Assembly (NCBI GenBank): GCA_030704615.1
Contig: CM060731.1
Coordinates: 31,248,001 to 31,312,000 of the forward strand
Direction: 5' to 3'
Length of the DNA: 64,000 bases
DNA from: Takakia lepidozioides
Lineage: Eukaryota > Plantae > Bryophyta
Shown: positions 6,491 to 16,030 of the stretch, in pieces
Layout of the letters: each line of letters opens with the position of its first letter
How positions within the stretch are numbered: the stretch's first letter is position 1
Notes under the pieces: model-generated
Database searches by the model: none
What the model saw: only the letters and a program-made list of their open reading frames with translations
What the model was told of the DNA's origin: nothing
Translations under genes and position numbers: made by a program

Positions 6491-6668
6491 TGATAAAGAA
6501 GAAGAATACAAGCACAAGCTCATGCGAACTCACAAAGCTGAAGCATAAACTCATGCATATATAACCTCATCACTCAAATACAAGTCAAGCCAAGTGCACC
6601 CCACGCCATGGGGAATCTATACTACGGCGCCATAGCTAGGCGCGGTGAGGCTCAACTCGAGAAAGATG
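6491..6668 (-). repeat. 3' LTR (partial, fused to truncated integrase)
   Basis: Direct repeat of 15728-15905 with 2 substitutions. Confidence 0.9.
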
Positions 6669-7100
6669 CACATATATGTGGTGGCGCATAGTCAGTGGCA
6701 ACGGTCCTGCGAAGTCAAGACTCCACCTGTAGCCCAATCCCATGATTGGTAAAGGATGCAACTGTGGTGTAGGGGCGTTGAATGAAGCACGCACCCTGTC
6801 ACACACCATGCACCTAGCCATGAACTGTTGCACCTCTGTATGCATACCACGCCACCAATACTGCCCCTGCAGTAAACTGTGAGTGCGTCGCACTCCAAAA
6901 TGCCCCAAACTCCTCATGGGCATGCCGCACTAACCGTGCACGCTGTGTGGGGTGAGGCACAATCCTCACACCGACCATCCTCCCACACTCGAAGTAGGTG
7001 TATCCTCCCACTTGAACCTCTTGGCTCGTTGCAGGATCCGATCCCTCTCCCTGGCAATCACAATGGCTGCCGTGTCTCCCGTGCGGAGGTAGTCCAACAC
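6669..7100 (-). pseudogene. Integrase N-terminus (HHCC Zn finger and first catalytic D), truncated
   Basis: HAHEE/GHFGVRRT...YWWRGM...CMVC...WSLDFAGPLP. Confidence 0.85.
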
Positions 7101-7306
7101 AGCCGAATCCTCATGTATATCTCTGGCACCACCTAGCTCATCACTAGCCTCAGGGTCCTCAGACACTCCGTCTACAGTCATCCCTGTTGTAGGTCCAATC
7201 TGACCTCCCGATGCCAAGATACACAAAAATGCAGATGCGTGCAATCCCGACACCATCTCCTCGTCCGTCTTACCATGCCACCGAGCTCCAGTGTCATCCT
7301 GCTGGC

Positions 7307-8700
7307 TCATGCATGGATTGCGATCAATCCATCCGCATCTCGATTGACCAAACCCGGTCGATGCACAACCTGAAAGTCATACTCCTGGAGTATAAGTGCC
7401 CACCGTGCAAGCTTCCCCGTAAGCTTGTCTGACTCCATCAACCACTTAAGTGGCTGGTGATCCGTGACAAGGGTGAAAAGATTGCCGTATAGATAGCACC
7501 TGAAGTGTGCCACGGCCCACACTGCAGCTAAGCACTCTCCCTCATATGAGCTGTACTTAGCCTCTGCAGCGTTGTTCGAGCGGCTAGCGTAAGCCACTAC
7601 GAACTCTCTTCCCTCATCATCCACCTGTGTGAGCACCGCTCCAAGCCCCAGCATGCTCCAATCCGTATGCAGCTGAAAGGGACGCCCCCTGATAGGTCGT
7701 CTCAAGATAGGCGCCGAGGTCAACCTCGCCTTGAGCTCTTGAAAAGCTCGTTCCTGCTCATCTTCCCACTGCCACTCCTGGTCCACCTTGGTCAGCTTGG
7801 TTAGAGCCTTTGCAATGGTACTAAATCCCTTGACAAACCATCTATAATAGTTTGCCAACCCCATGAAAGCTCGAACTCGGCTCACATCCGTGGGGCGTGG
7901 AATTTGTGCAATGGCCTCTACCTTAGTCTGCTGTACCCCCAATCCTCCAGGATATATCATGTGACCCAGACTCAATCTGGTTGTGGAAAAACTTGCACTT
8001 CCCCGGATGCAACTTCAATCCGTGCGCTCTCAAGCGCTCCAATACCACTGAAGGTGTCTCTCATGCTCCTCCATCGTAACACTAAAGATGATGATGTCAT
8101 CTATGTAGCACCGAGCAAAGTCCACCCCTGCTAGAATCCTATCCATGACTCTCTGAAACTCTGCAGGAGCATTCTTAAGCCCAAATGGTAAGAACCGCCA
8201 CTGATATAGGCAATCCTTGCCGTGCTCATTGATCGCCCAGAATGCCGTCTTCTGCTTGTCCGCCTCCTTGATTGGCAACTGGTGATATCCGGATCGTAAA
8301 TCCAAAGTGCTAAAGGCCTTAGCATGCCCGATGGCATCAAAGATCTCCTCTGGTGTTGGCATGGCATACTTATCGGACTTGGTCTGACGATTTACAGGCC
8401 GGTAATCACCGCACATACGTCTCTCCGTCCAATTGCCATAGACATCCTTCTTGGCTGGCATCACTGTGGCTGAAGCATACTCTCCACCAGAGAGCTCCAC
8501 CAAAACCTGCCTCCCAGAGATCTTGAGTCCTCATCTGAATCAAAGACCTCTCCATGTCACTGTATCTATAGGGTCTCCGAAAGATTGGCGTGTCAGTGGC
8601 CAACTCAATACGGATCTCTTGACCCTTCAGTGCTCCCAAGTCCTTCAAACTGAAGGCAAAGCAATTCCTGTAAGCCCTCAGGAACCGCCGTATACGTCGT
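7307..8700 (-). pseudogene. Reverse transcriptase and RNase H (frameshifted)
   Basis: [72 protein letters not shown]. Confidence 0.95.
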
Positions 8701-9119
8701 CTCTCTCCTCCGGTGACAATGGGTCCAATGTCAGGCTCCCAATTGTCCTCCGTAACTGCAACCTTAAGTCCAGTGGGCTTAGAGGTAGAGGACGCGTCCA
8801 GTGGTTGCTATGTTGCAACCTCTTGAGCAGTACTCCCTGCCTGCTCAGTCAATGACAAGGCCTCATCCTCCCATCATCTCATCCTTGAGGACCTCCTCAA
8901 CCCGAGAAGAATCCCCAACCTCATCCATCACAGCCGCCTTGGCTGCCAACTCCCTCTGAACCTCGAGCACCTCCCACGTGTGCCATGGATGCATGCACCC
9001 CGTGGTCCTCACATGCTCGCCCCCACTCACTGCCTGTACCGTCTCGGTAGGTAGAGAGACCATTGAGGGAAGTGTACTCCGCACTCTGTGTTGCTCAGCC
9101 AGAGCCAAGCTGATAATCC

Positions 9120-12960: not shown

Positions 12961-13624
12961 CCGGTCATGAACATGTCCCTAACCCCCTCTCCACAAGGTA
13001 ACCGGGTAGAGAACCTGTTGCGGCTTATGGTTTGGAATACTAAGTTCCTAACATAGCCTACACCTGTACCTGCATCCACCGCAAGCACTCCTATGGTTGG
13101 CTGGTCATCACCTCCAACCTCACCACAGGAGAAACAATGATGGTCTGGCTGGTCATCACCCCAGCCTCACCATCGACAGCATGCTCTAGGACTGGCCGGT
13201 GATCAAATCCGGACCAATCACCTATAAAAACAAGCGCCCACACAAAACTAGCATGGCGCACAGTCAAGCATGCAGGTATGGAGGGGATCCAACACAAGAA
13301 ATCAGAACGACAACTCCCCCACACCAAAAACAACTCCACGGTGTTGCTCCTGCAAGGACACCCCAGCCCAAACCCGACTGACTCTTGCCTCCACCTACGG
13401 AAAGGTCTTGGCCTAATGAGAGGGTGGAAACTACGAGGAAGAGAAGCTAAAGCAATGCCTAACCCCAGCATGCCTCATCCCAACACTCTTCCTCTCCTCT
13501 CTTCCCTCACTTGCATGACCATGGGAATATCATGAAGATACTCCTCAAACCGCCCTCCACGAGCTTCAAAATTCGGCCTTCCAGACCACATGCCAGTCCT
13601 TAGGCAGTCCACCAGTGCCTCCAC

Positions 13625-14292
13625 GAGTCAGCACAGCCCGTCACAGCCCCACAGGCCACTGGGCACAGCCAGTCACAGCCCCGCACAGCCCTCACAGCCC
13701 CAAAGGCCACGGGCACAGCTTGTCACAGCCCGTCACAGCCCGTCACAGCCCCAAAGGCCTCAGGCACGGCCTGTCACAGCCCCTCACAGCCTCAAAGGCC
13801 TCAGGCACGGCCTGTCACAGCCCCTCACAGCCCATCACAGCCCCAAAGGCCATGGGCACAGCCTGTCACAGCCCCTCACAGCCTGTCACAGCCTCAAAGG
13901 CCTCAGGCACGGCCTGTCACAGCCCCTCACAGCCATCACAGCTCCAAAGGCCATGGGCACAGCCTGTCACAGCCCCGCACAGCCCGTCACAGCCCCACAA
14001 GCCACTGGCACAGCCTGTCACAGCCCCTCACAGCCCCAAAGGCCACGGGCACAGCCTGTCACAACCCCACAGGCCTCAGGCACGGCCGACACAGCCCATC
14101 ACAGCCCCAAGGCCTCAGGCACGGCCTTCACACAGCCCGTCATAGCCCGTCACAGCCTCAAAGGCCTCAGGCACGGCCTGTCACAGCCCCTCACAGCCCA
14201 TCACAGCCCCAAAGGCCATGGGCACGGCCTGTCACAGCCCCTCACAGCCCATCACATCCCCAAAGGCCATGGGCACAGCCCGTCACAGCAGC
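13625..14292. repeat. Compound minisatellite (GTCACAGCCC / CAAAGGCC subunits) in the retrotransposon 5' leader
   Basis: Dozens of (T)CACAGCC copies with higher-order units. Confidence 0.9.
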
Positions 14293-15727
14293 CCATCCAT
14301 GGCCGCTCTGGCAGTTTAGCCATTTCTCCAAGGGGTTTAGCCACGCCAAGCTAGGGTTTGTGTCTCTTGGACTCTAGGCTTCTTTCCACCGAGCTATGGC
14401 GGCTGTGAGGAAATCAGCAAGGTATTCTTGCTCTTTCGGCTCCCACACACCACCATAGTAGCCCTAAGCCATGAGGTGGTTGCCACAAACCAAGCCTTCT
14501 TTCTCACTTAGCCTCCCCAAACACGCCACTAAACTCAATGGCAAACAACCAAGCCCTGCTGGTTCCCAGCCCTTGTGAGCGTTCATTCAAGCACTCTCCT
14601 TGGCCATAGCATCTGTCTTAGAGCCTATTCCAGCCCCCTACACCTGCTGCTTCAAGAGTTGCGCTCCCTTCAAGCTTGAAGTTGAAACCCCAACTCACAT
14701 AGGCCCTACAAGTGCTTTTCTTTCACTCCAAGTGGAAACCAGCCCTAGACCTTCCGTTCTAGCTCTCTAAAGCTTGAAAACAAGAGCCTCAATGGGCTGA
14801 AGGCATGCTCCACACATGCCCCACTCTCACCATAAGAGAATCAACTCCTTTGCTTCATTTCTTGCACCCACAAACTTGAAAATACAAGCTTCAGCAGGTT
14901 GAAAGCATGCTCCACATGCCCTACAGGGAAACCAGCCCCTTCCTTCCTTTCTTGCACTCCCACACCTGAAAGTGCAAGCCTTCACCAGGCTGATAGCATG
15001 CTCCACACATGCAACCTCTTCACACAAGAGATATCAGCCCCCTATCTTGGCTCCTTGGTTCCTTGATGCTCTCTAAGACAAGACTAAGCACTCCACAGCC
15101 TTTGCCAAGCTCCTGAAACCCTAAGGCTTACATTTCCAGCCACAAGACACTTCTCTTGTGGTGCAAGAACTCTTCTTCCAAGCTCTGAAACCCTAGGTGC
15201 ACATTCCATGGCCTTGCCGCACCTCTTAGCTCCTGTTCCAGCCCTGCTCTCGCCATGACAAGAGCCCTCTCAATGCTGAAGCTCGAGATTGAAACCCAAT
15301 CTCACCATACTCCACAAAGTGCACTGATTTGCCCCAAGCCAAATCAGCCCTTTCGCTTGGTCTTGCAATCCTTCACACAATGAAAGCTCGCATTCCCAAG
15401 TGCAGTTCTCAGCTTTGCCACCAAAGCCACTATAACCTGCTCTTGACTGGTCCTCTTCCCAATCGTGCTTGCTCATGCATGTACACAATCTGAAACCATC
15501 AAGGTGCTCTAGAATTACCTGCAGTATGGTGCTTTCATCTCTGAAGCTGAAGATCGAATGTCAAGGTTTACCACCTCGTAACCCACATCGCCTCCGCTTC
15601 TAACAACCAAGAGCTCCACGGTGCTCCTTGCATAACAACTTGGTTTCTCTCATTCTCAAGCAAAAACCACAAGTGCTACAACTAACTCGTATCTAGCACT
15701 CATAGATACGAGCTGATCTTTCTCAAG

Positions 15728-16030
15728 TGATAAAGAAGAAGAATACAAGCACAAGCTCATGCGAACTCACAAAGCTGAAGCATAAACTCATGCATATATA
15801 ACCTCATCACTCAAATACAAGTCAAGCCAAGTGCACCCCACGCCATGGGGAATCCACACTACGGCGCCATAGCTAGGCGCGGTGAGGCTCAACTCGAGAA
15901 AGATGAGCCTTCCGCGCTTGCCATGAAGATAACCACTCCAGGGCCTAAATCTGCCTTGACCCCTGGATTGACACTTGGGCCAATCCCAAATGTCAATATG
16001 TAAAAGCTAGCTATTTCCTAGCTAGTTTCA
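15728..16030 (-). repeat. 5' LTR (~303 bp)
   Basis: Minus strand starts TGAAAC and ends TTATCA; outer boundary inferred from CA end and CACTA flank. Confidence 0.75.

Follow-up and report, generated by a model that had tools for sequence, protein, structure and literature searches.

A DNMT3-bearing Gypsy retrotransposon copy with split end repeats in a land plant, and a candidate route for its integration

The window analysed here, a stretch of 64,000 nucleotides from Takakia lepidozioides contig CM060731.1, contains one copy, damaged by a deletion and by frame changes, of a high-copy land-plant Ty3/Gypsy family that belongs to the Gypsy-DNMT3 (KnitGypsy-Dnmt3) lineage. Gypsy elements with their own DNMT3 and rearranged end repeats have so far been described in one green alga only, as KnitGypsy-Dnmt3 from Klebsormidium nitens (de Mendoza et al. 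2018, PMC5890265), and we found no literature on land-plant members of the lineage. To this description we add a conserved stop after the DNMT, a fixed B|A palindrome versus a ragged A|B joint in the end repeats, and depletion of CpG but not of CHG. Taken as a whole, the element is probably best explained as a DNMT-bearing Gypsy copy whose family would combine self-priming, a leaky stop, integration of end-joined cDNA and CG methylation of that cDNA.

The element extends from 6313 to 16054 on the minus strand, has TG...CA termini and is flanked by a 4-bp target site duplication (TSD), AGTT, at 6309-6312 and 16055-16058 (both unstranded). An uninterrupted paralog of the flank, a loose end in run X7, passes from 6309 into sequence like that from 16059 onward. 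Contig depth, which does not equal copy number, rises from 25 to 57,759 across position 6313 in run X1; runs X1 and X2 come from a single sample, possibly the one from which the assembly was made. A 4-bp TSD, within the 4-6 bp typical of Ty3/Gypsy elements, accompanies all four insertions showing both ends (window, L024, L026 and L034). The earlier note had placed the ends at 6491 and 16030, which we rejected since no TSD is present there.

Read along the minus strand, the element begins with repeat A1 (15728-16054), which starts with TGTCA and in which the putative transcription start and self-primer fall at 15904-15893. The putative primer-binding site (15716-15727), complementary to what would be the first 12 nt of the element itself, a long 5′ leader (12754-15715) with a 41-51-nt tandem array at 13632-14289, and a frame-broken gag with zinc knuckles (11497-12753) follow. 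Next come an aspartic protease with LLDSGA (10511-10918; Asp_protease_2, E 0.0016), the DNMT domain (9070-10060), an in-frame TAG followed by CAA CCA (8802-8810, stop at 8808-8810), and a frame-broken pol ORF2 containing a linker, reverse transcriptase (RT) and RNase H (7005-8774; Pfam E 1.9e-22 for RT and 1.2e-36 for RNase H; 68-82% identical in pieces to L022 pol). Of the integrase, the N-terminal H2C2 zinc finger (E 1.2e-12) and the first core residues remain (6669-6969). The 3′ end consists of a remnant of repeat A2 (6491-6668), covering A from the putative transcription start onward with 2 mismatches to A1, and of repeat B2 (6313-6490), delimited by the depth jump in X1 and by an end motif, last letters CACGACA, that recurs in L008, L024, L026, L034, L035 and L049. 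The copy has at least 21 frame changes. A deletion at 6669 runs from the integrase core through the PHD finger, the polypurine tract (PPT), B1 and the palindromic B|A joint into A2, which lacks its first 149 nt; the sequence beyond 6669 is present in other copies (loose ends in X5 and X6), and the 3′ ends are complete in L008, L024 and L034. The Ty3/Gypsy order gag-PR-RT-RNase H-integrase is present, and the order for the lineage is gag-PR-DNMT-stop-RT-RH-INT-PHD.

The frame-broken DNMT domain carries the C5 cytosine methyltransferase motifs I to X in unrearranged order on the minus strand, with the DSG protease upstream and RT downstream, confirming the placement first proposed for it. Motif I (LLDFVGG) lies at about 10050-10020, the Cys of motif IV (AGWPCQG) at about 9770, motif VI (ILENV) at about 9640, motif VIII (RAHRPR) at about 9530 and motif X (LGQAMD) at about 9140, preceded by motif IX (ERERTMGF). 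A match to PF00145 was obtained for 21 of 26 homologous proteins at E ≤ 0.001, whereas the window's own match is weak and below the cut-off of 22 bits (17 bits, E 0.0041), because at least four frame changes split the domain. A profile search against the PDB retrieved DNMT3A (2e-18), DNMT3B (3e-15), DRM (4e-8) and HhaI (5e-6), and the matches listed for a structure model of the homologue P0005 (pLDDT 85.7) were to DNMT3A/B/C throughout. A first model, built on 10 sequences, was of low quality (pLDDT 48.7) and was excluded from the structure search, and a single-sequence PDB search with the window's C-terminal half gave nothing significant (best E 0.17, DNMT3A). Among 109 domains, the catalytic Cys is retained in 106, the Glu of motif VI in 107 and the RxR residues in 106 and 108. 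The dN/dS between families is 0.16-0.19, the suggested check thus indicating purifying selection on the DNMT; between the window and five loci pN is 0.20-0.24 and pS is saturated at 0.76-0.79. The DUF3444 tail that marks host plant DNMT3 (PMC6453930) is absent from the 26 homologues scanned, and the I-X order is not the DRM permutation. DNMT-less relatives (L050 and L052) nest within the lineage in the tree, indicating that the enzyme is dispensable.

Homologue counts were 33 and 86, including many Marchantia gene models, Calypogeia and Sphagnum fallax, and there were 435 clusters at 50% identity and E ≤ 1e-30. The same domain order occurs in Marchantia, Calypogeia, Sphagnum, Closterium and Klebsormidium, which places the window element in the KnitGypsy-Dnmt3 lineage and argues against a one-off capture. 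In K. nitens GAQ93235 (P0184) the protease occupies residues 604-694 and the DNMT 830-1148, the protease-DNMT order of the window, which is also that of Closterium. Searches of viral contigs gave no member: one found 0 of 17, and the others gave four weak PHD-type or chance matches and one unrelated Gypsy. The trees are a quick one, one made with FastTree and a careful LG+G4 tree without mixture, which uses every third of the 76 RNase H-DNMT rows; they include no K. nitens RT, and the window pieces form separate rows. In the DNMT tree (unrooted FastTree, 189 rows, without host DNMT3), K. nitens falls among the protease-DNMT rows on an open fork. The window lineage forms a branch separate from the two other Gypsy elements in the window. 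A chlorophyte branch (Hariotina, Haematococcus) has the DNMT between RNase H and integrase, and is probably kin to elements of the type of Gypsy-7a_cRei, a chlorophyte Gypsy that likewise has a PHD finger in its polyprotein but for which the description in PMC9940879 reports no DNMT. The view of a Gypsy element with a DNMT3-like enzyme in a land-plant genome holds, and the family is abundant and young. PF00145 matches were found, other copies carry the DNMT and the contig is not from a charophyte, so none of the outcomes that the earlier note considered fatal has arisen. Its claim to novelty fares less well, as the element shares its lineage and domain order with that of Klebsormidium; bryophytes and the window's host inherited it, with no new capture.

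KnitGypsy-Dnmt3 resembles the window element in its Gypsy pol with an unrearranged DNMT3, its DIRS-like repeat order and its purifying selection (PMC5890265). It differs in its algal host, that of the window element being a land plant, and in that the authors assign DNMT and RT to a single ORF, whereas here the Gag-PR-DNMT frame stops before RT. The main text of that paper gives no mechanism of priming or integration and does not mention PHD, Marchantia, Physcomitrella or Sphagnum.

Two other origins for the window copy can be considered. Its heavy frame breakage and its PF00145 score would suit the capture of a host DNMT3 gene on a single occasion, or an assembly chimera. We regard this as extremely improbable: it is already refuted by the multi-species family, with the same order in dozens of loci and in the named species, contig depth is as high over the DNMT as over the remaining element, and TSD and flanks fit a single insertion in which neither introns nor DUF3444 were seen. 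A recent horizontal transfer of the family from a bryophyte into the window's host could account for an RT/RNase H that shares about 80% identity with bryophyte-type copies and is nested among these in the tree (99/92). The saturated pS of the window against all five loci, and repeats that are unalignable beyond short motifs, make a recent transfer improbable too; an old one may have occurred.

Whether protease, DNMT and RT form one ORF had been raised as a point to check; a conserved in-frame stop intervenes. It follows the DNMT in all 31 sequences that span the linker (43 examined), as well as in L048, and the TAG of the window recurs in L022, L038, L039 and L048. In intact relatives DNMT and RT lie in the same frame, parted by the in-frame stop; the distant member P0161 has no stop. 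The window context is UAG-CARYYA, CARYYA being the consensus of leaky stops. The strict form occurs in 4 of the 31 sequences (5 with L048), and 26 Sphagnum-type copies have CAACCC or CAACTC and then ATG, making reinitiation possible there. The conserved position implies that the DNMT is likely made at Gag level. Quite probably, most ribosomes would halt after the DNMT and few would read through, giving a particle with DNMT at the level of Gag and protease and with little RT-integrase.

A TGG-type tRNA primer site after A1 was not found by eye, nor were tRNA genes found within the window. In three families the self-primer occupies the same position and covaries; in two of them it lies 30 nt downstream of a TATA. 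The predicted fold of the window closes on the self-primer pairing (z -5.09). Pairing of at least 10 pairs is seen in 6 of 12 A1 copies, the others being decayed. Very probably, then, the RNA would start within A1 and its first 12-13 nt would pair just after A1, priming reverse transcription without a tRNA. Self-primed reverse transcription is the mode of Tf1. In the Tf1/sushi group and the plant Tcn1 clade (Neumann et al. 2019, PMC6317226) there is likewise no tRNA site, and the first 11-13 nt of the RNA pair after the 5′ repeat; those elements have canonical LTRs and a chromodomain, unlike the split repeats, PHD finger and DNMT of the window lineage.

The window element does not have the pair of identical terminal LTRs typical of Ty3/Gypsy elements. 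What had been taken for near-identical LTRs is a 178-nt repeat (6491-6668 and 15728-15905, 2 mismatches), just part of repeat A in a split-repeat layout, A-coding-B-A-B, with A at the 5′ end and B-A-B at the 3′ end. The whole layout is present in L024 and L034 and B-A-B in L008, L035 and L049; for the window it comes from run joints (16054 to 6313 with GC between in X1, X2 and X6) and loose ends (X1, X5 and X6). The B|A joint is a palindrome, CA-NN-TG with a 2-nt self-complementary spacer (GC or AT), at all nine loci showing it, and its constancy extends to distant and DNMT-less relatives. The A|B joint is different in each of six copies (window, L008, L024, L026, L034 and L035), that of L026 retaining 9 nt of the primer site. 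None of 11 5′ ends in the loci has B upstream. An apparent junction at about 3666 in L038-L040/L042 was discarded as AT-rich flank, not repeat A. SymbioDIRS-Dnmt3 of Symbiodinium is also a retrotransposon DNMT3 with A-coding-B-A-B repeats (PMC5890265), but it has a tyrosine recombinase and no TSD-making DDE integrase, and its DNMT was captured separately. Instead of the tyrosine recombinase and lack of TSD that define DIRS/PAT, the window lineage has an H2C2 and rve integrase and a TSD.

The fixed B|A palindrome and the ragged A|B joint suggest that the integrating molecule is end-joined cDNA opened at an internal site. Strand transfers from the self-primer and from the PPT before B1 would yield a linear cDNA with an LTR (B+A) at each end, and joining of these ends would form the ragged A|B joint. 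Integrase would then open the joined cDNA at CA-NN-TG in the left LTR by a staggered cut that leaves ready-processed CA-3′ ends, and a cut there gives the order A-coding-B-A-B. We lean slightly towards these steps taken together. In foamy virus, too, integrase opens a circle at a palindrome, producing processed ends (PMC1180852). Its cut is at the ligated junction, whereas the cut proposed here falls at a constant palindrome within the LTR and the ligated joint would end up in the genome. A closed two-LTR circle with two equal palindromes should also yield A-B-A-coding-B, and the absence of B from all 11 5′ ends means that a simple circle model needs an unexplained asymmetry. That absence is accounted for if no circle is ligated and RT instead jumps between the ends of linear cDNA and extends through B, integrase trimming the two outermost palindromes; in a variant, the internal B|A joint serves as template, as proposed for the split repeats of PAT/DIRS. 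The repeat order is indeed that of DIRS-type elements (PMC5890265). Such jumps would still yield a ragged A|B joint with remnants of the primer site, as in L026, but would require a third copy of the palindrome and the removal of long terminal pieces. We know of no precedent for such removal. Cleavage of palindromic circle junctions by integrase does have one, in foamy virus (PMC1180852), and we consider the jump a possible but distinctly less probable route.

At codon 3-1 junctions the element has 20 CpG where 57 are expected, and L022 has 8 against 102; two neighbouring DNMT-less Gypsy elements have 42 against 51. CHG is not depleted in the window element or L022. A MULE-like ORF in the window is likewise CpG-poor (15 versus 32), showing that depletion is not specific to the element. 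Judged from sequence, namely CpG depletion, purifying selection and conserved catalytic residues, the likely activity of the DNMT3 domain is CG methylation of the cDNA newly made by the element itself. That packaged DNMT would do so before integration, as camouflage or self-restraint, seems somewhat better than an even chance. The SymbioDIRS-Dnmt3 enzyme carries out de novo CG methylation in yeast; the KnitGypsy DNMT did not methylate yeast DNA, a result its authors call inconclusive (PMC5890265). The missing signal would also suit a DNMT that acts on host chromatin where the element inserts or close by, steered by the PHD finger that most members have at the integrase C-terminus, or that serves as a DNA-binding module, and host methylation can cause CpG depletion, as in the MULE-like control. 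In this clade, however, the DNMT precedes the stop, alongside Gag and protease and unfused to integrase, the best-kept copies show CpG without CHG depletion, and the catalytic residues are retained, making such roles unlikely compared with methylation of cDNA.

More tentatively, these elements may represent an old green-plant Gypsy lineage, from chlorophytes to land plants, that primes without tRNA, whose DDE integrase inserts end-joined (two-LTR-circle-type) cDNA at an internal palindrome, and that in land plants uses a leaky stop to produce DNMT3 at the stoichiometry of the capsid, each copy being CG-methylated before integration. Under the integration model, the normal substrate of the lineage would be end-joined cDNA, which is usually deemed a dead end. 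Programs that search for a pair of equal LTRs will overlook the family or date it wrongly, and many Marchantia gene models for a "DNA methyltransferase" are these elements. The range of DNMT-bearing retrotransposons thus grows from one alga to land plants. Among these is the model Marchantia, whose intact Gag-protease-DNMT gene models (P0002 and P0003, the latter being Mp_4g09160), together with methylation mutants, make the function of a transposon's own DNMT directly testable.

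The limits of the element were taken from contig depth and joints in public sequencing runs mapped onto the region. Depth at position 6313 climbs from ~25 to 57,759 (run X1), and a joint from 16054 to 6313, with GC in between, is present in runs X1, X2 and X6. The minus-strand element therefore extends from 16054 (TG) to 6313 (CA). AGTT flanks it on either side, and in run X7 an uninterrupted paralog of the flank links both sides of the insertion. A 4-bp target-site duplication was found in 4/4 insertions having both ends. The earlier note had described near-identical LTRs at 6491..16030; this 178-nt pair is the surviving part of one of two split repeats, A, whose 5' copy (A1) occupies 15728-16054, whilst the other repeat, B, forms the 3' end (B2, 6313-6490). 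Run contigs show that in other copies B follows a purine tract (PPT) and the integrase runs on beyond 6669. Among 42 metagenome loci examined for repeat order, the full A-coding-PPT-B-A-B arrangement occurs in L024 and L034, and the 3' B-A-B in L008 and L035; the latter was also found in L049, from a distant family. One copy (L013:6935-7070) terminates as coding-PPT-B-flank, lacking A2-B2; it may stem from a one-LTR circle, from the other cut, or from recombination at a later time.

The window copy has lost the integrase core through the first 149 nt of its second A repeat (A2, remnant 6491-6668). The surviving A stretch contains 2 mismatches in 178 nt, suggesting a young insertion, with wide error. 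Frame changes number at least 21, against a single stop inside the aligned pieces (6669-12753), and run contigs over the element display 0 substitutions and 1-4 gap letters. This suggests that many indels are assembly errors and that the copy is possibly less decayed than it appears. Whether or not the indels are real, the copy is non-autonomous since its integrase is deleted. In this single case, the deletion breakpoint (6668/6669) and the inferred transcription start (6668 corresponds to 15905) are no more than 1 nt apart, as though the first strand transfer had ended in the integrase gene.

Six methyltransferase motifs lie in unrearranged order on the minus strand, flanked by a DSG protease and RT, just as the earlier note had reported. 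Pfam confirmed the protease, RT, RNase H and integrase zinc finger. The DNA_methylase (PF00145) assignment holds for 21/26 homologues scanned, but the window's own copy matches only weakly (E 0.0041), its domain being split by frame changes. The C-terminal half of the window DNMT retrieved 33 longer homologues, topped by Calypogeia fissa and Marchantia polymorpha gene models (60-71% identity), with one from Sphagnum fallax; the domain is thus not confined to one copy, a possibility that the earlier note had raised. A profile of 14 sequences ranked DNMT3A first (2e-18), followed by DNMT3C/B, DRM (4e-8) and bacterial enzymes, and a confident structure model of homologue P0005 matched DNMT3 structures in every row of the matches listed. 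The catalytic cysteine is retained in 106/109 full domains, and dN/dS of the DNMT between families is 0.16-0.19.

KnitGypsy-Dnmt3 of Klebsormidium combines Gypsy domains with DIRS-like repeats, according to de Mendoza et al. 2018 (PMC5890265). As in the window, protease precedes DNMT in K. nitens GAQ93235, found among 150 representatives listed, and in Closterium proteins. In a chlorophyte sister branch, which includes Hariotina, Haematococcus and many others (P0030, P0032, P0053-P0095, P0112; L054), the DNMT is placed after RNase H and before integrase. The two positions separate in RT trees and DNMT trees alike. The RT tree groups the window element with Marchantia and Sphagnum-type copies (support 99/92), and nests DNMT-less elements within the chlorophyte-type branch. 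Judged from these sequences, the shared order, the sister branch and the RT trees point to a green-plant lineage of long standing rather than a new capture. The element represents the known Gypsy-DNMT3 kind in a land-plant form. Prokaryotic MAGs in GTDB also contain contigs with plant or algal Gypsy elements (L048-L054), and in L048 the element is whole, with two long ORFs. Searches for the family names turned up only PMC5890265 and a 2026 preprint, whose accessible part names "streptophytes (Gypsy-DNMT3)" once. PMC12344493 has, in its accessible part, one sentence citing the KnitGypsy-Dnmt3 work, and its readable supplement contained no match; the accessible portions of PMC11244446, PMC6453930 and 10.1101/363937 hold nothing further on the family. 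Within the portions of the literature consulted, we met no DNMT-bearing Gypsy in chlorophytes, and found in print neither the host range in land plants, nor the stop after the DNMT, nor the palindrome-cut model described below.

The 12 nt that follow A1 are complementary to a segment of A lying 165 nt upstream. In the Sphagnum-type family and in L048 both of these sites differ in sequence but still pair, 30 nt past a TATA-like box in each case. The predicted RNA fold of the window copy closes on this self-pairing (z -5.09), and at least 10 pairs are kept in only 6/12 A1 copies. We liken the putative priming to that of the Tf1/Tcn1 type, which is self-priming. With a primer site after A and a purine tract before B, ordinary strand transfers would yield cDNA with B+A at each end. 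The genomic A-coding-B-A-B would arise if such cDNA were joined end-to-end and then reopened between B and A. The joints match this prediction, since B|A is fixed and A|B is variable: in 9/9 loci, including DNMT-less relatives, B|A reads as the palindrome CA-NN-TG, the two spacer nucleotides (GC or AT) being self-complementary, whilst the A|B joint differs in each of six copies and once retains part of the primer site. If both strands were cut after CA, in a staggered fashion, processed integrase ends would result, and foamy-virus integrase does something alike on a palindrome (PMC1180852). The simplest closed-circle form is opposed by the 5' ends: it would contain two such palindromes, yet B precedes 0/11. 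The main rival to the end-joined circle is a template jump by RT along a linear molecule.

All 31 sequences spanning the linker (43 examined) carry an in-frame stop, 16-23 codons ahead of the conserved pol start; distant members have no stop. After the DNMT, UAG-CARYYA, a leaky stop context, is found in the window, L022, L038, L039 and L048, and 26 Sphagnum-type copies have the stop followed by CAACCC or CAACTC and then ATG. Database Gag-protease-DNMT proteins mostly end ~80-160 residues past motif X. The conserved stop, its context and these protein ends indicate that the DNMT is likely made at the Gag level, with RT-integrase produced by readthrough, although reinitiation or splicing may operate instead.

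Elsewhere in the window, a broken PLS-type PPR gene with a WWD motif (29300-30930, plus strand) has land-plant matches only. Among the 120 listed of 476 matches, every one of the 14 best local ones is to Diphasiastrum complanatum (62-63% identity at best), with Sphagnum at 58, Calypogeia 52, Ginkgo 50 and Adiantum 49. On these matches, from a comparison set with few hornworts, mosses or liverworts, the host was judged to be a land plant and probably a clubmoss. A plus-strand ORF (51198-51743) possibly resembles N6/N4 DNA methylases (ESM Atlas 0.82; no Pfam match at 0.01) and is a lead only. A minus-strand ORF (36396-36992) is predicted to be like DUF3723/ParB-type proteins (ESM Atlas 0.96) and lies near a transposase-like region (39038-41965). 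Three tandem NIF-phosphatase-like ORFs (Pfam NIF) occupy 1329-5579 on the minus strand. Further transposon sequence at 16091-20022 (minus), 22871-24974 (plus) and 60999-61773 (minus) comprises two Gypsy remnants lacking a DNMT, a hAT-type transposase (DUF659) and a CACTA-type remnant (DUF4218). Inverted repeats lie 33 kb apart (21486-22390 and 54963-55894).

The Klebsormidium enzyme is reported to be silent in yeast (PMC5890265). At codon 3-1 junctions, the window element contains 20 CpG vs 57 expected and L022 8 vs 102; two neighbouring DNMT-less Gypsy elements contain 42 vs 51, and a MULE-like ORF in the window is likewise CpG-poor (15 vs 32). CHG, counted in the window copy and L022, is depleted in neither. 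Although the CpG-poor MULE-like ORF and the silence of the Klebsormidium enzyme both weigh against it, depletion of CpG without that of CHG is consistent with a putative activity of the DNMT, that of long-term CG methylation of the element's own cDNA.
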